Origin: a virus
Lineage: Duplodnaviria; Caudoviricetes
Reading direction: 5' to 3' (one strand)
Length of the DNA: 64,000 bases
Virus record (IMG/VR): IMGVR_UViG_2706795967_000001
Coordinates: 2,612 to 66,611 of that record
In this document: one piece after another, positions 1-48,323 of the stretch
How positions within the stretch are numbered: the first letter of the stretch is position 1
Layout: each line of letters begins with the position of its first letter
Notes under the pieces: generated by a model
Told to the model about the DNA's origin: nothing
Seen by the model: the letters and a program-made list of their open reading frames with translations, nothing else
Database searches by the model: none
Translations under genes and position numbers: made by a program

Positions 1-630
1 CGAGTTTCGGGCGTCCCCAGCGTACAGCCGAGCCTGGATCACATCGCCAAGCTGCAAGAGTCCATGCAGGAAGCGAACGGCATTCCGGACATCGCAGCTG
101 GAAAGGTCGATGTAGCCATCGCAGAGTCCGGAATCTCTCTCCAGCTTCAGCTGTCACCAATCATCTCGGCGGCCAGCGAGAAGGAGAACGAGATCCTCGG
201 CGTCATGGATCAGATGCTCTACGATTTGACGACGCAGTGGTTCCCGGCCTACGAGAATCTGGACTTCACGGGCGTTTCGATCTACTCGATCGTGGACGAC
301 GCGATGCCGGTCAATCGTGACGCCAAGATTCAGGAGGTCATCCTCCTATTCACCTCGGGTCTCATCACGATCGCTCACGCGCAGGCAGAACTCGCGAAGC
401 TCGGCTACTCGTTCAAGGACGGCGACGCCCTCCAGGTCCTCAAGGACGCGGCTGCTCTGGCGGCAGCGAAGAGCGGCGAAACGAACAAGTTCGAGCAGCT
501 CAAGGAACCCGAGAGTCGCGAGCTGAGCGACGACGCGGGCAAGCTGCCGGAAGGCTTCGGCGGTGCTCCCTCAGGAGGCGAGGACGCAAATCTCGGGACA
601 CCAGCAACGATCCCTCAGGCGGGTGCGTAG
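1..630 (+). CDS. Portal protein, C-terminal part (5' truncated by window edge)
   Basis: Frame is open from base 1 (RVSGVPSVQPSLDHIAKLQESMQEANGIPDIAAGKVD..AESGISLQLQLSP) to TAG 628-630. The AESG-x-L-x-L segment and position before the head genes fit an actinophage portal. Confidence 0.75.
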   Translation, partial: RVSGVPSVQPSLDHIAKLQESMQEANGIPDIAAGKVDVAIAESGISLQLQLSPIISAASEKENEILGVMDQMLYDLTTQWFPAYENLDFTGVSIYSIVDDAMPVNRDAKIQEVILLFTSGLITIAHAQAELAKLGYSFKDGDALQVLKDAAALAAAKSGETNKFEQLKEPESRELSDDAGKLPEGFGGAPSGGEDANLGTPATIPQAGA

Positions 631-645: not shown

Positions 646-843
646 ATGGACGGCGGATACAATACGAGCGGAGACGTGGTACCTTCGGGAAACCGCCGCG
701 AGATGATCCGCAAATCTGCCGAAGCAGCTCGACAGCGTCGAACCGATAGAGCCCAGCGGGCCTCTGCGAAAGCCCAGGAATCCCTGGCGAAAGCACAGAA
801 GCGCGCTCTCAAGAACGGAGCGCCTGGCCGGAAGGTTAGGTAG
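646..843 (+). CDS. Small basic protein (65 aa)
   Basis: Arg/Lys/Ala-rich ORF; its stop overlaps the next GTG (TAGTG). Confidence 0.7.
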   Translation: MDGGYNTSGDVVPSGNRREMIRKSAEAARQRRTDRAQRASAKAQESLAKAQKRALKNGAPGRKVR

Positions 844-1430
844 TGGCACGACGACGTGGAGCGTGGGGTAACGCGCTCGGTGGTTACAAGCGACAGCGAC
901 GGGTCAAGGGGCGTTTCGCTTCCGGCTCGGGCGGTATGAGCCCGACGAAGCAGAACCGTCAGCTGTATCGCAAGCGGAAGCGGGCGATCAACAGGAATAC
1001 CCGGAAGAACGTCCGGAGCGAGAACTTCGCCGCATATCGTCCTTCTGTTCGCAAGGGGTTCAACGCGATCGCGCAGGCTCACGGAGCCAACCCTCGAGGC
1101 GCACAGCTGACCCGAGACATCAAGTACTCGAGCGCTCAGATGAAGAAGAGCTATCGGCAGCAGGGTCGTCAACAGAAGCGAGTGCTGAAGGCCAGCTACA
1201 AGATCGCCCAGAACAACGTGAAGATCTCCAACGCGCAGAAGTCGATCGCGGCGAGCCCTCATCTGGCCGGAACCGGCATGCACAACAGCATCAATCGAAA
1301 AATCGCGAAGCGCCAGCGGCAGAATGTCGCGATCGCTCGTCGGGCCGGTATCGCCAATCCCCGGCCGATCCCTCGCACCGGTCACATCGGCTCCGGAGTA
1401 ATGGCGATTCCGGGTCCGGGTAAGCGATAG
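843..1430 (+). CDS. Arg/Lys-rich protein with N-terminal WGNALGG motif (195 aa)
   Basis: GTG start coupled to the upstream stop; begins ARRRGAWGNALGGYKRQRRVKGRFASG. Confidence 0.75.
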   Translation: MARRRGAWGNALGGYKRQRRVKGRFASGSGGMSPTKQNRQLYRKRKRAINRNTRKNVRSENFAAYRPSVRKGFNAIAQAHGANPRGAQLTRDIKYSSAQMKKSYRQQGRQQKRVLKASYKIAQNNVKISNAQKSIAASPHLAGTGMHNSINRKIAKRQRQNVAIARRAGIANPRPIPRTGHIGSGVMAIPGPGKR

Positions 1431-1438
1431 GCTTCATC

Positions 1439-1585
1439 ATGGGCAAGCGATGGGGCAACGCTCTCGGAGGCTGGAAGTACCAGAAGCGAACGAAGAAGGG
1501 CACGTTCGCCGGCTTGGGGCTTCGAGGAAAGACTCGTAAGGGCGTCAAGAAAGTGAAGGGCTCCCTTCGACGAAAGAGGCGATAA
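1439..1585 (+). CDS. 48-aa basic protein with WGNALGG motif (missed by ORF track)
   Basis: ATG 1439: MGKRWGNALGGWKYQKRTKKGTFAGLGLRGKTRKGVKKVKGSLRRKRR*; TAA 1583-1585 overlaps the next ATG (TAATG). Confidence 0.7.
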   Translation: MGKRWGNALGGWKYQKRTKKGTFAGLGLRGKTRKGVKKVKGSLRRKRR

Positions 1586-2062: not shown

Positions 2063-2818
2063 ATGGCAGGCAAGGGTCTGGTAAGAGGAAAGGCTTGGGG
2101 TAACGCTCTGGGCGGATACAAGACCCAGCCTCGAGACGCCAGCGGTCGGTTCGGCGGCAAGGCCAAGAAGCGAGCGAACTTCACAGTCATTCGCAACGGC
2201 GGTCGTACACCGAATTCCACCCCGAAACGAGTGACGAACCCCAACGCGGTTCCTCGTGCCAGTGGTCAGCGAAGCGTATTCAAGAAGGCTGACAAGATAG
2301 CCCGCAGTCGCGGAGGCGGTGTAGTTCCTTACCACCGTCACGGATACGGTCATCATACAGCCGGAGTGAACGCTGGCATCAGTATCACTCCGAATCGACG
2401 GATATCGGGTGGCGTGTACCTGCGTACCGATAACCTACGCGCCCAGAAGCGCGTTTCGAGCATGCTGAGGGCCGATGAGCAGGCCCGGATGGCTATTGGT
2501 GGTGGTGTGGCTGCCGTGTACGGCACTCAGAAGCGCAATGCCACCTGGATCAAGCGGAAACGAGACGCCCTGATCCGAAAGGGCCTCGGCAAAGAGCGCA
2601 ATCTGCCGAACTCCAACGCTTTCGGTCGAGCTGGCACTGACCGAAACGGTCTTCCGACCCTCGTGGTGCAGTACAATAGCCCCAGAGGGAAGAAGGAGCG
2701 GAGTCGTCAGGCTCGTGACACGGCGATCGTCAAGTACAACGAGGCAGCGACTCGCAGCCGGGGTCACAAGGTGAAGAAGCCGCGTCCGCAAAGGAGGAAG
2801 AAGAATGGCAAAGGGTAG
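2063..2818 (+). CDS. Arg/Lys-rich protein with WGNALGG and QPRDxxGRF motifs (251 aa)
   Basis: Begins MAGKGLVRGKAWGNALGGYKTQPRDASGRFGG. Confidence 0.75.
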   Translation: MAGKGLVRGKAWGNALGGYKTQPRDASGRFGGKAKKRANFTVIRNGGRTPNSTPKRVTNPNAVPRASGQRSVFKKADKIARSRGGGVVPYHRHGYGHHTAGVNAGISITPNRRISGGVYLRTDNLRAQKRVSSMLRADEQARMAIGGGVAAVYGTQKRNATWIKRKRDALIRKGLGKERNLPNSNAFGRAGTDRNGLPTLVVQYNSPRGKKERSRQARDTAIVKYNEAATRSRGHKVKKPRPQRRKKNGKG

Positions 2819-2886: not shown

Positions 2887-3261
2887 ATGACCGCGACCGC
2901 TTTCGTACAGCGCTCGTTTCCCGAACCGTTCGATCAGGTTCTGATCGACAAGCTCCTGTCCAAATGGAGCATCGGGGACGAGCGCTGCGGCGTAATTCTC
3001 GTCGGAGGAACGATTCTAGAGCTGACGAACGGGATGGACGACCCCTCTCATTCGTTCGGACTTCTTCAAGAAGAAATCGAAGACGTTTTCAGGGCGTACG
3101 GCAAGGATTCTATCGCCGCAGTGTGGCACACTCATCCGAACAACAAGACCCGTCCCAGCGAGGAAGATCGCGAGGGTTGGCCGACCGGTTCGCTACGATA
3201 CCTAATCGTCACGCAATCTGAAGTGGCGGAATGGGCGAACCCTTTCGACAGGCTCTACTAG
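2887..3261 (+). CDS. JAB/MPN+ (JAMM) family metalloprotease
   Basis: Full catalytic signature: ERCG, WHTHP-x5-PSEED (E...HxH-x7-S-x2-D). Confidence 0.85.
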   Translation: MTATAFVQRSFPEPFDQVLIDKLLSKWSIGDERCGVILVGGTILELTNGMDDPSHSFGLLQEEIEDVFRAYGKDSIAAVWHTHPNNKTRPSEEDREGWPTGSLRYLIVTQSEVAEWANPFDRLY

Positions 3262-3291
3262 TTGCAAGCCTGCTTCCGCATGAGGTAAGCT
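3262..3291 (+). promoter_or_regulatory. Putative SigA-type promoter for the scaffold/capsid operon
   Basis: TTGCAA (3262-3267), 18 nt, TAAGCT (3286-3291); GGAGG SD before ATG 3328. Confidence 0.5.
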
Positions 3292-3327
3292 GAAGCTCGT
3301 TACTTATTCTGAGAGCCGGAGGTTCCA

Positions 3328-4074
3328 ATGAAGTCGACCGTCCTTCGTAAGGACATCGCAAAGTTCTTCGCCTTCGGCGGAGACGGTGGCAATGACGACC
3401 CGCCCAACATCAACGTTCCTGGAGCAAAGGACGAGAACAAGGGTCGCAGCAGCCGTCGACGCAGTCGTCGTCGAGACGACGACGATGACGACGACGATGA
3501 TGACATCGACCTGAGCGACTCGGGTCCGGGCTCCAAGGACAACAAGATCTACAAGTTGTCGCAGGAGAACAAGAATCGTCGCCGGGCGAACCGCGAACTG
3601 CGAGAGACGATCGCCGAGCGCGACGAGCGCATCGAGGAGCTCGAGGAGGAACTGCGCAAGGTTCCCCAGCTCCAGAGCCTGTACGAGAAGCAGAAGCAGG
3701 ACAACGAGAAGATGAAGGACACCGTCCGAGAGATGGCCCTTCGTCAGGCTCTTGGGACAGCCAAGGGCAAGGACGAGAAGCCGCTGGCATGGTACGATGA
3801 GGGCATGGTTCTTGACCTCATCGACCGCAAGAAGGTCGCGGTGGACCTCAAGGATTTCTCGGTGAGCGGTCTGGACGATCAGCTCCAGAAGATCGCCGAA
3901 GAGAAGCCGTTCCTCGTGAAGGACTCCAGCGGAGAGCCGACCGGCGGGACCAGCAGTCGCACCACGGCAACGGGTGCGGCACCCCAGAGCAGCGCGACGG
4001 GAACCGGGCAGCAGAATCAGACGAGTACGAAAGACAAGTACCAGTCTCGATTCGCTGCGTTGAACAACATCTGA
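3328..4074 (+). CDS. Capsid scaffolding protein
   Basis: Coiled-coil centre (LSQENKNRRRANRELRE), acidic and low-complexity ends, directly upstream of the capsid genes; N-terminal KFFAFGGDGG leader. Confidence 0.8.
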   Translation: MKSTVLRKDIAKFFAFGGDGGNDDPPNINVPGAKDENKGRSSRRRSRRRDDDDDDDDDDIDLSDSGPGSKDNKIYKLSQENKNRRRANRELRETIAERDERIEELEEELRKVPQLQSLYEKQKQDNEKMKDTVREMALRQALGTAKGKDEKPLAWYDEGMVLDLIDRKKVAVDLKDFSVSGLDDQLQKIAEEKPFLVKDSSGEPTGGTSSRTTATGAAPQSSATGTGQQNQTSTKDKYQSRFAALNNI

Positions 4075-4085
4075 AAGGATACGTC

Positions 4086-4463
4086 GTGGCGAACTACGAC
4101 AAGTACAACTCCAAGGTTGGAGGCTTCCGCGCGCCGCTCGCAGCCGATTGGTCGACGGACGATCTCAAGAAGGTCATCGGTGTCGGCCTGAACGCCTCGG
4201 GCCAGATCGTCAAGGGCGGTGGCAACACCGGCCTCGTCGGCATCCTGGTCCTGACCAAGGCGCTCAAGGCAGGCGACATCGTCGACCCGATGGTTCGCGG
4301 TCACGTCACCGACTTCGGCGGCAATCCCGGAACCATCTACTACGCGGACGCATCGACCGGCGTCGTGAATGCGACCTCGGCCGCAGGCAAGTATCGCATC
4401 GGTCACACCGTCGGCAAGGACTTCCTCGTCGTCGACTTCAACAAGACTCCGGTCGCGGCGTAA
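4086..4463 (+). CDS. Capsid accessory/decoration-like protein (125 aa)
   Basis: Between scaffold and major capsid genes; Gly/Val-rich beta-type sequence; strong codon bias. Confidence 0.6.
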   Translation: MANYDKYNSKVGGFRAPLAADWSTDDLKKVIGVGLNASGQIVKGGGNTGLVGILVLTKALKAGDIVDPMVRGHVTDFGGNPGTIYYADASTGVVNATSAAGKYRIGHTVGKDFLVVDFNKTPVAA

Positions 4464-4476
4464 GGAAGGAAGAGGA

Positions 4477-5640
4477 ATGATGATCGAACTGAAGACCAAG
4501 TTCTTCGCCTTCGGTGGCGACGGCGGTTACCAGACCGCAGGCGACATCGTTACCCAGACCATCGACGGTGTCGACCTGAACGCCCTCTGGGCGGAGTACC
4601 AGGAGACCATCGCTCTCTGGAACGAGCGCCGACTCGGCCTCGCAGGTTTGCTGACCTTCCCGGTCACCAACCTGATCGAGAACGTCCCGCAGGTCGGCGA
4701 CGCGGTGTTCCAGGAAGCGTCGGAGTTCGGCGAGCCGGAAGCCGGGAAGATCCCCGTCAGCTACATCCAGCTCGGCTACGACTTCAAGTGGTACGACGTC
4801 GCGAGCCGTTGGACCTGGATGTTCCTGGCCGACGCGGACGTCCGGCAGATCGACGCGCTCCACAACGCCTACCTGAACGGCGACGCGCGACTCGTGTTCC
4901 GGAAGATCATGGAAGCGATCTTCGACAACCGGAACCGTTCCGCGGACATCAACAGTCAGGCGTACAACGTCTACCCGCTCTACAACGGGGACGGAATGGT
5001 GCCGCCGGACTACGGCGTGAACGAGTTCGAGGGCACCCACTCCCACTATCTCGTCTCGGGTGGTACCGAGATCGATCCGGGCGACCTGGAGAACGCCACG
5101 GAGCACATCGAGGAGCACGGCTACTCGAAGGAAAACGGGACGACCCTCGTCCACCTCGTCAACAAGGCGCAGGCGAAGGTCATCCGCACGTTCCGGCAGG
5201 GACAGACCACCAACGGTGTCGTCGCGAACTACGACTTCATCCCGTCTGTCAACGAGTCGCCGATCATTCTCCCGGCCGAGGGCATCCTCGGTTCGCGTCC
5301 GCCGAGCACCTGGCAGGGCCTTCGTGTGCTCGGTTCGTACAACGACGCGCTCATCATCGAGCACTTCGCCATCCCGACGCTCTACATGCTGACGTTCGCC
5401 TCCGGTGGACTCGGCCAGATGGGCAACCTCGTCGGTCTCCGCGAGCATGCGAACCCGGCTTACCGGGGTCTGCGACTCATCGCCGGCAATCAGCAGGGCT
5501 ACCCGCTGACGGAGTCGTTCTACTCGCGAGGATTCGGCACCGGCATCCGCCAGCGTGGCGGAGGCGTCGTGACGCAGATCAAGGCGTCGGGTTCGTACGA
5601 CATCCCGACGCAGTACCGCAAGGGATCGGGGCTGGGCTGA
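4477..5640 (+). CDS. Major capsid protein (387 aa)
   Basis: Start reassigned to ATG 4477 after AGAGGA; size, position and very strong codon bias; N-terminal KFFAFGGDGG leader. Confidence 0.85.
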   Translation: MMIELKTKFFAFGGDGGYQTAGDIVTQTIDGVDLNALWAEYQETIALWNERRLGLAGLLTFPVTNLIENVPQVGDAVFQEASEFGEPEAGKIPVSYIQLGYDFKWYDVASRWTWMFLADADVRQIDALHNAYLNGDARLVFRKIMEAIFDNRNRSADINSQAYNVYPLYNGDGMVPPDYGVNEFEGTHSHYLVSGGTEIDPGDLENATEHIEEHGYSKENGTTLVHLVNKAQAKVIRTFRQGQTTNGVVANYDFIPSVNESPIILPAEGILGSRPPSTWQGLRVLGSYNDALIIEHFAIPTLYMLTFASGGLGQMGNLVGLREHANPAYRGLRLIAGNQQGYPLTESFYSRGFGTGIRQRGGGVVTQIKASGSYDIPTQYRKGSGLG

Positions 5641-47541: not shown

Positions 47542-47725
47542 CTCCAGGCATGGAAAGCACTGCTCTCAAGAGCACGCGGACCTCATGCGGGGATACTGGG
47601 CCGAGCGAGAACGTCAGGAAATCGCTCTAGAGAACGAGCTATACAAGGAGTCGGACGGCAATAGTCGTCCGGCTCTTTTGTCATTCCAGGAGTATCTGAT
47701 GGGTAGCCGCAGGAACGGACGATAG
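47519..47725 (+). CDS. Hypothetical protein (68 aa)
   Basis: Probable ATG 47519 after GAAGAGG; CSSRHGKHCSQEH; start uncertain. Confidence 0.5.
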   Translation: MRTRTPCSSRHGKHCSQEHADLMRGYWAERERQEIALENELYKESDGNSRPALLSFQEYLMGSRRNGR

Positions 47726-47754
47726 TTGCGCCACTACTAAACCTGTACTAGTAT
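47726..47754 (+). promoter_or_regulatory. SigA-type promoter
   Basis: TTGCGC, 17 nt, TAGTAT; AGGAGG SD downstream. Confidence 0.65.
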
Positions 47755-47798
47755 TGTAGGGGTAAGCGCGGCAGCGTTTACCCCGATCAGGAGGAAAC

Positions 47799-48323
47799 AT
47801 GAAGTTCAAGAAGCTGCTCAAGATCGCGAAGAAGATTCGCGAGCGCCAAGAGCACGGGATCATGAGCGATCGCCGTCACCACGCCGACACGATCAGCCGC
47901 ATCCACCGCCTCGAGCAGGTCGTGAAGGACACGCAGGACATGGTTCGCGACGTCCTGGACGAAGTCGTGCAGGACACCGTCGACTCCGAGAGCGAACCTC
48001 TCGTCAAGCCGATCGATCCCCTCGACCCCGTTCTCGAGCCGGTCGCGCCTCTAGCATTCCAAGAGGTCCAAATGAAGCCCGAGACCTTCGACGAGCTGCA
48101 CTCGGTCATCGCAACCATCGCGGCCGGGGGCACGATCAGCGGCGATCGGCTCCCCGTCGACGTGCTCGACGTGATCAAGGCCGCCGACGAGGCCCTCACG
48201 GACATGCGGTTCGGCGACGAGATCAAGGCCCTCCGGGACGCCGCAGACCTCGGGTACCCGCACCCCGACACGGTCGACTGGGAAGACGCCAACGACCACG
48301 CCGACAACGTCGGGAAGGACTGA
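47799..48323 (+). CDS. Hypothetical protein (174 aa)
   Basis: Strong SD and codon bias. Confidence 0.75.
   Translation: MKFKKLLKIAKKIRERQEHGIMSDRRHHADTISRIHRLEQVVKDTQDMVRDVLDEVVQDTVDSESEPLVKPIDPLDPVLEPVAPLAFQEVQMKPETFDELHSVIATIAAGGTISGDRLPVDVLDVIKAADEALTDMRFGDEIKALRDAADLGYPHPDTVDWEDANDHADNVGKD

Follow-up and report, generated by a model that had tools for sequence, protein, structure and literature searches.

We describe a stand-alone JAB/JAMM zinc peptidase, encoded among the head-assembly genes of a Gordonia siphophage resembling Suzy, that we propose to be the leader peptidase of both the scaffolding and the major capsid protein, a reading to which we assign a probability of about 0.6. 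The analyzed stretch of DNA (64,000 nt, hereafter the window) comprises bases 2612-66611 of the 66,611-b virus record IMGVR_UViG_2706795967_000001, which is rated 100% complete, and is 92% identical at the DNA level to Gordonia phage Suzy. As judged by comparison with Suzy, only the terminase and the N-terminus of the portal protein are encoded outside the window. The candidate peptidase (124 aa; 2887..3261, plus strand) precedes the scaffolding protein (248 aa; 3328..4074, plus strand) and the major capsid protein (387 aa; 4477..5640, plus strand), and the two head proteins begin with leaders that share a motif containing Gly-Gly.

A leader shared by the scaffolding and major capsid proteins

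The scaffolding protein was assigned by its matches to Pfam Phage_scaffold (5.5e-21) and to the head scaffolding families phrog_4866 and phrog_194. Matches to phrog_3990 (1e-169) and to the structures 8SAJ (Adjutor, 1.2e-134) and 8GIU (Patience, 8e-128) in the Protein Data Bank (PDB) place the capsid protein in the Patience-like HK97-fold family. A preliminary description of this DNA had reported an identical peptide, KFFAFGGDGG, early in both proteins, and translation of the two open reading frames (ORFs) bore this out: the peptide occupies K12-G21 of the scaffold (nt 3361-3390) and K8-G17 of the capsid protein (nt 4498-4527). Both copies lie where that description had put them, with the correction that a decoration gene (4086-4463) intervenes between the scaffold and capsid genes. 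The capsid frame is open for another 36 codons 5' of the true ATG at 4477 (4369-4476), overlapping the end of the decoration gene, and hence the ORF listing gives a 423-aa ORF from 4369; the start at 4477 is backed by the Suzy annotation and by a GGAAGGAAGAGGA ribosome-binding site.

The two 30-nt copies that encode the shared peptide are identical over their first 17 nt and differ at four positions, each the third base of a Gly codon and each synonymous. Conservation thus concerns the peptide and does not reflect a fresh DNA duplication. As a control for chance similarity, we compared the first 40 residues of the window's 97 plus-strand ORFs with a length of 80 aa or more, among which no pair had a common 7-mer and two pairs had a common 6-mer.

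In the alignments with Patience and Adjutor, residues F9-G14 of the window capsid protein correspond to F14-G19 of the Patience capsid protein, and G14 corresponds to Asn28 of Adjutor, the first residue modelled in 8SAJ; the scaffold was compared in the same way with its Patience homolog gp21. From these alignments we predict a cut between G18 (3379-3381) and D19 (3382-3384) of the scaffold and between G14 (4516-4518) and D15 (4519-4521) of the capsid protein. The predicted leaders are therefore M1-G18 of the scaffold (3328..3381, plus strand) and M1-G14 of the capsid protein (4477..4518, plus strand).

Published N-termini support a cut after the shared motif

Two published studies provide information on the N-termini of homologous head proteins. 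Translation of the Patience genes shows that the capsid protein gp23 reads P-I-F-G-G|T20 and that gp21 reads P-I-F-G-G|T35. We consider gp21 to be the true scaffold, as it was found as the orthologue of the window scaffold and is named head scaffolding protein in RefSeq. By mass spectrometry, the first peptides of gp21 begin at Thr35 (PMC4324244). This residue is not a tryptic N-terminus and, given that the codons at this position are GGT GGT ACC, cannot be a translation start either. The same study lists gp21 among the N-terminally acetylated proteins and offers no explanation for its N-terminus (PMC4324244). The cryo-EM models of the capsid proteins were trimmed for missing density, to Thr20 in Patience and to Asn28 in Adjutor (PMC11965321). 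In Adjutor, the scaffold and the capsid protein both contain L-S-G-H-D, and the capsid model begins two residues past the G. The published N-termini of both phages, being located at or just after the motif, support a cut directly after it, and we regard cleavage of the leaders after the first Gly-Gly as very probable.

A different cleavage of the Patience capsid protein, at 82/83 with a product of 35.3 kDa, was assigned previously (PMC4324244), whereas the cryo-EM model includes residues 20-82 (PMC11965321). The Patience capsid protein (locus L003, 9561-10763) contains neither Lys nor Arg between residues 24 and 98, and the 82/83 assignment probably came from poor tryptic coverage of this stretch. 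A mature Patience capsid protein of about 41.9 kDa is more likely.

Variation of the leader among relatives

Our sample of the capsid family included 24 IMG/VR loci, 12 isolate genomes and 4 further contigs. Similar G-ended leaders were found in the scaffold and capsid of every examined relative with a JAB gene in its head module. In 12 non-redundant genomes of this kind, the best 8-residue match between the capsid leader and the scaffold of the same phage always fell on the G-ended motif, and the own-scaffold match ranked 1-6 of 32 when compared with all scaffolds, a conservative measure because related phages have motifs in common. Four further loci behaved alike.

The leader consensus is a hydrophobic residue followed by F/Y/L/I/V, then G and G/A, with D/E/T/S/N/H after the presumed cut; the exceptions are S-G in Adjutor, G-C in the capsid of Fowlmouth and F-G in the scaffold of Onyinye, and several relatives have G-A in place of G-G. 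The motif varies between phages, yet it does so in step in both genes, as illustrated by D-I-V-G-A-D in Kurnik, I-Y-G-A-E in Sadboi and F-A-F-G-A-D-P-E in L043, each present in scaffold and capsid alike. L041 has lost the second G-G of the window motif and retains the first, which indicates the first G-G as the site.

Another shared leader, aromatic-D-L-R-x-A-F with no terminal Gly, was observed in L013, L015/L019, L016, L017, L023 and L024. Scaffold and capsid share the motif in this subgroup as well, and it may represent a second, unexplained type of shared leader.

Family, fold and annotation of the JAB protein

The JAB protein matches Pfam Prok-JAB (PF14464) with 32.3 bits (cut-off 25; E-value 9.8e-8) and has the full set of catalytic residues, namely E32 (2980-2982), H81 and H83 (3127-3135), S91 (3157-3159) and D94 (3166-3168), which confirms the intact JAMM gene upstream of the scaffold noted in the preliminary description. 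An alignment of 72 JAB sequences shows no variation at E32, H81, H83 and D94, and conservation of at least 90% at S91. The AlphaFold model (pLDDT 87.7, pTM 0.80) has as its best Foldseek matches in the PDB PfJAMM1 (5LD9, with TM 0.69 and probability 1.0, and 5LDA, with SAMP2), Cap3 (9ILD) and Rpn11. Profile match, catalytic motif and MPN fold all place the protein in the JAMM/MPN+ family, and it is the sole JAB protein of the full 66.6-kb genome. The substrates of PfJAMM1, Cap3 and Rpn11 are all cleaved immediately behind a C-terminal tail of the Gly-Gly type. By analogy, we propose zinc-dependent hydrolysis after a Gly-Gly tail as the activity of the window protein.

At E<=1e-10, a profile built for the JAB subfamily matched 243 representative protein clusters, including some tail-type genes that resemble K of phage lambda; proteobacterial phage genes are among the K-like matches. 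A word-based search for homologues of the JAB protein matched the window protein and that of Suzy only.

The names given to the JAB orthologues in GenBank include 'protease' (Patience gp19), 'metalloprotease' and 'head maturation protease' (Madruga), and they state no mechanism. Patience gp19 has been set in a 'terminase, portal, protease, capsid' synteny (PMC4324244). The function is therefore less novel than the preliminary description assumed, as a protease role is already contained in the GenBank names. We found no description of a JAB/JAMM/MPN head-maturation protease in the literature searched, and the Patience and Adjutor literature examined gives the JAB protein no family or mechanism and no tie to G-ended leaders. 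The RefSeq names of several genes of these modules look misplaced (Suzy gp8 and gp9; Patience gp18, gp19 and gp20) and differ from the names chosen by the GenBank submitters: RefSeq applies 'tail protein' to the JAB protein and 'head maturation protease' to a basic protein that has no catalytic-type residues and to a MuF-like protein.

Position and evolution of the JAB gene

Portal and scaffold genes flank the JAB gene not only in the window but also in 15 other non-redundant loci, and hence in all 16 members of the clade. All 16 head-module JAB proteins retain E-x-C-G and H-x-H...S-x-x-D, at identities down to 19%. The pairwise distances between JAB proteins correlate with those between capsid proteins (Spearman 0.48, Mantel p ~0.001, 16 head-module loci), and in the capsid tree the genomes with a head-module JAB gene form one clade (support 95/90). 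The retention of the motifs and the co-divergence with the capsid are more in keeping with a core morphogenetic gene than with a mobile accessory one. We also sought head-module JAB genes that are combined with unrelated capsid families and found none: the long contigs obtained (L041, L043, L046, L048 and one more) all have the Patience-like layout, and the remaining profile hits in this sampling are one lambda-K-like tail locus and others that were too short.

Several observations weigh against the assignment of the JAB protein as the leader peptidase. Synteny and co-occurrence amount, by the capsid tree, to essentially one evolutionary event, and the JAB-free subgroup with the non-Gly leader fits the hypothesis but adds only one more event. 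G-ended leaders are also found where the JAB gene is far from the head module, i.e. 4.5-13 kb upstream of the capsid gene in L018, L020, L025 and Triscuit, and in a non-structural region in L009 and L012, which have a 188-aa JAB protein and leaders that end in N-F-x-I-x-G. In Krampus (gp3; L049 776-1204, 16 bits) and Wollypog, ORFs with the JAMM motif (H-x-H...S-x-x-D) score below the Pfam threshold, and in L007, an 84%-complete record, a G-ended capsid leader is present and no JAB was found. The co-occurrence of leader and JAB gene, suggested in the preliminary description as a check, thus holds in the head-module clade and becomes blurred outside it, where G-ended leaders accompany a JAB gene elsewhere in the genome, a sub-threshold one or none. 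In addition, the G-A, G-C and F-G variants leave the exact bond and the specificity unfixed, and the 124-aa protein has no obvious capsid-targeting extension. Finally, PHROGs and RefSeq label the JAB protein as 'tail protein', a label that we attribute to the fact that the same JAB profile also picks up lambda-K-like tail genes (e.g. in L044).

Outside the head-module clade, JAB genes or ORFs with the JAMM motif were observed in L038 (G001 47548-47862), L039, L040, L037, L049 and L050. Their surroundings are diverse: Triscuit gp26 (L037 27-374) lies beside lysin A, the Krampus ORF is near the left genome end, that of L012 is in a non-structural region, and that of Wollypog (L050, at ~55 kb) has a long insertion. 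Krampus and Wollypog, which would otherwise count as JAB-free counter-examples, are of doubtful status because a search with the Pfam profile found these sub-threshold ORFs in both. In the complete genome L019, no JAB was found even at E<=10, and the head module of L019 showed no alternative protease, only MuF and an ADP-ribosyltransferase fusion. In relatives counted as JAB-free, ADPrib_exo_Tox domains occur in large head-module proteins, at L031 5797-7215 (Krampus gp14) and L019 3666-5072, and the domain of Krampus is fused to a MuF-like protein.

Other proteases and alternative explanations

The preliminary description had recognized no conventional prohead protease in the window, leaving open the missing part of the genome, and profile searches of the full 66,611-b genome support this view, with no match to Peptidase_S78, CLP_protease, Peptidase_S49 or Peptidase_S77 at E<=1. 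The cysteine protease Prp (PF04327) was found neither in the phage nor in one Mycobacteriales control genome, that of Corynebacterium glutamicum. The MuF-like protein, considered as a protease candidate, is ruled out here, as the window has no MuF gene. Another candidate, the 251-aa basic protein encoded at 2063-2818, was likewise rejected. Its orthologue in Suzy, gp8, is labelled 'head maturation protease' in RefSeq (hypothetical according to the GenBank submitters), as is Patience gp18, which matches phrog_12708 of that name, and these labels are what would favor it as the real protease. The window protein itself has a pI of 11.9 and 24% Lys+Arg, it gave no Pfam or PHROG match even at E<=5 and no protein-atlas result, and no His, Asp, Glu or Cys is invariant in the alignment of its family. 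The RefSeq label traces to the PHROG name and is also applied to MuF-like proteins, so that it looks like a propagated name, and we consider a protease role of this protein highly improbable.

The preliminary description had offered two positions for the cut, after Gly-Gly and after the two Phe residues of the shared peptide. The former is supported by the N-termini of Patience and Adjutor. The latter would correspond to a Prp-like cut, K-F-F|A-F-G-G, of the kind known from the L27-type leaders of staphylococcal phage 80alpha, the layout of whose scaffold and capsid leaders is mirrored in the window; F|A is indeed present in the leaders of the window, Suzy, L041 and L043. However, it is missing from Patience, Adjutor, Send513, Sadboi, Kurnik and others, in which the G-[GA] step is retained, the N-terminus of Patience was observed after G-G, and Prp was found in neither of the genomes searched for it. 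Cleavage at F|A is thus rejected as very unlikely. A further alternative is that the leader stays on, uncut or disordered, as an assembly or folding handle common to scaffold and capsid. In 80alpha, the scaffold N-terminus is needed for assembly and its cleavage is dispensable (PMC5744158); the JAB-free loci L013, L015/L019, L017 and L024 share the non-Gly leader and no protease was found in them; and a cryo-EM model that is truncated at its N-terminus can reflect disorder as well as cleavage, so that truncation alone does not separate the two, a point that also counts against the peptidase assignment. Against retention of the leader, Thr35 of the Patience scaffold is a direct observation of a cut after the homologous G-G, and the window site can be aligned residue for residue both with this cut and with the residues at which the 8GIU and 8SAJ models begin. 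We therefore consider an uncut leader improbable.

The explanation that competes most directly with the peptidase assignment leaves the cut after Gly-Gly in place and ascribes it to a host enzyme or to an unrecognized phage enzyme, the JAB protein serving instead, for example, in lambda-K-like assembly or in freeing virion proteins of host ubiquitin-like, CBASS or Bil conjugates. It is favored by the relatives that have G-ended leaders and a distant or doubtful JAB gene, by the matches of the JAB profile to tail-tip K-like genes beside NlpC/P60 and J-like genes, by the presence of Cap3 among the best fold matches, and by the precedent of 80alpha, in which a host protease processes both scaffold and capsid (PMC5744158). 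The JAB gene, however, holds its place between portal and scaffold throughout the clade (16 of 16), and its divergence follows that of the capsid gene; no NlpC/P60 partner, ubiquitin-like gene or second JAB gene was found nearby or elsewhere in the genome; and the cut motif is exactly of the type that JAMM enzymes recognize. Two pieces of general background point in opposite directions: JAMM enzymes such as Mec+ are also encoded by the actinobacterial hosts themselves, which favors a host enzyme, and anti-defense genes are usually patchy and located in accessory regions, which speaks against an anti-defense role of the JAB protein. For the Bil-type role, which the preliminary description had raised, we found nothing in support. 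On balance, we regard the involvement of another enzyme as a possible but rather unlikely explanation.

A proposed route of leader removal

In the proposed mechanism, the scaffold and capsid proteins would be made as precursors with leaders of 18 and 14 residues, respectively, that end in hydrophobic-x-Gly-Gly. The JAB protein would bind the extended Gly-Gly tail of the leader as other JAMM enzymes do with ubiquitin-like proteins and their L-R-G-G tail, and would hydrolyse the bond after the second Gly or small residue, freeing a peptide of 14 or 18 residues. The mature proteins would then start at Asp19 (scaffold) and Asp15 (capsid), directly before the conserved G-G-Y of the capsid N-arm. 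A cut within a linear polypeptide would have a parallel in DRJAMM, which is reported to cleave MoaD-MoaE, so that JAMM enzymes can cut linear fusions after Gly-Gly (PMC8832034).

Cleavage would take place in the cytoplasm, while the procapsid assembles or earlier, and not inside a sealed prohead. The spectra of the Patience scaffold come mostly from infected cells and not from particles (PMC4324244), and the cut scaffold appears to bear an N-acetylated Thr35; together these two points suggest cytoplasmic processing, as has been proposed for Prp in 80alpha. We infer the identity of the enzyme, the occurrence of processing in this phage and the timing of the cut from the combination of these comparisons.

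The small basic proteins encoded upstream of the JAB gene may be related to the same system. A motif of the form [KR]-x-W-G-N-A-L-G-G-[YWF]-[KR]-x-Q...G-x-F starts three of them, of 195 aa (pI 12; 843..1430, plus strand), 48 aa (pI 12; 1439..1585, plus strand) and 251 aa (the rejected protease candidate; 2063..2818, plus strand). The W-G-N-A-L-G-G motif is nearly unchanged in Suzy, Sadboi, L041 and L043 despite the differing scaffold and capsid leaders of these phages. The conservation on both sides of its G-G suggests, at the level of sequence, a binding or targeting motif. It could instead be a further JAB site, and the 195-aa protein is a possible further substrate, which we propose with low confidence. 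More broadly, one may speculate about a general Gly-Gly leader system, in which a single JAMM peptidase would serve the scaffold, the capsid and the three protamine-like W-G-N-A-L-G-G proteins, the leaders acting as ubiquitin-tail mimics for delivery to the procapsid and being clipped on arrival; we consider such a system unlikely, if conceivable. If true, it would represent a ubiquitin-free deployment of the deubiquitinase mechanism in virion assembly.

Gene content of the head module and comparison with known systems

The left edge of the head module is formed by the C-terminal part of the portal protein (1..630, plus strand), which matches phrog_64 portal (6.8e-12) and Suzy gp2 portal. It is followed by the series of small, very basic proteins (646-2818, pI 11.4-12). 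The protein encoded between scaffold and capsid (125 aa; 4086..4463, plus strand) is a minor capsid, or decoration, protein that matches phrog_5042 (1.3e-51); its orthologues in Suzy and Adjutor carry the name 'minor capsid protein', and it corresponds to the decoration protein of Patience-like capsids (PMC11965321).

The order portal, basic proteins, JAB, scaffold, decoration, capsid is the same in the Patience-like modules (Patience gp19-gp23, Adjutor gp11-gp17, Send513, Barnyard, Sadboi and Suzy), which also share with the window the capsid family (8GIU, 8SAJ) and the G-ended scaffold and capsid leaders. The window and Suzy differ in that they have no MuF gene between JAB and scaffold. Of the loci with a head-module JAB gene that were examined, the window, Suzy and L041 showed no gene for a MuF-like minor capsid protein, whereas most of the others have it in this position (L003, L029, L032, L033, L043, L046 and L048 were compared). 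Suzy has a 1.26-kb 'hydrolase' gene (gp4) after its first small basic gene, and the window has no such gene.

Compared with known systems, the window system would work like that of 80alpha and Prp, in which one short N-terminal leader on both scaffold and capsid is removed by one dedicated peptidase. The 80alpha enzyme is the host cysteine protease Prp, its site is F|A, and its leader mimics the ribosomal protein L27 (PMC5744158), whereas in the window the enzyme would be a phage-encoded JAMM metallopeptidase cutting after Gly-Gly, at a site resembling a ubiquitin tail. In 80alpha, the cleavage is not the trigger of expansion (PMC5744158). The classical prohead proteases (HK97 gp4/S78, T4 gp21/S77, ClpP-like S14, lambda C/S49) resemble the window JAB protein in that their late-operon genes follow the portal and precede the scaffold or capsid gene, and in the trimming of head proteins, which for the JAB protein is a proposed role; they are unrelated to it in fold and catalytic type. 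Moreover, the window cut would remove a short leader and not a delta domain, and degradation of the scaffold is not implied.

The prokaryotic JAMM/MPN+ enzymes and their relatives (PfJAMM1/HvJAMM1 acting on SAMPs, Mec+ on CysO, DRJAMM on MoaD-MoaE, Cap3, Rpn11) have the same fold and E...HxH...S..D motif as the window protein, and they all cleave immediately behind a C-terminal tail of the Gly-Gly type, linear fusions included. Their substrates are beta-grasp ubiquitin-like domains or CD-NTase, in contrast to a leader of 14-18 residues with no ubiquitin-like fold, and the products of the window enzyme, unlike theirs, would be virion assembly proteins. Tail proteins of the lambda K type (JAB plus NlpC/P60) contain a homologous JAB domain, and split K-like genes are found in tail modules (L044). 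The window JAB protein differs in having no NlpC/P60 partner and in being encoded outside the tail-tip module, with basic proteins and scaffold as its neighbors.

If the proposed role is true, a metalloprotease of the deubiquitinase class (JAMM) would join the HK97/T4-type, ClpP-like, S49 and host Prp proteases of capsid maturation, and a function would be available for a gene that 82 or more sequenced phages of Mycobacterium, Gordonia and Micrococcus carry. It would explain two loose ends in Patience, the non-tryptic scaffold N-terminus after a glycine and the assigned capsid cleavage at 82/83 that is contradicted by the model from Thr20. It would also correct database labels, both 'tail protein' and the 'head maturation protease' placed on the wrong gene, and fix the mature N-termini for structural work. 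A small, orthogonal, Gly-Gly-specific pair of leader peptidase and tag may then be possible.

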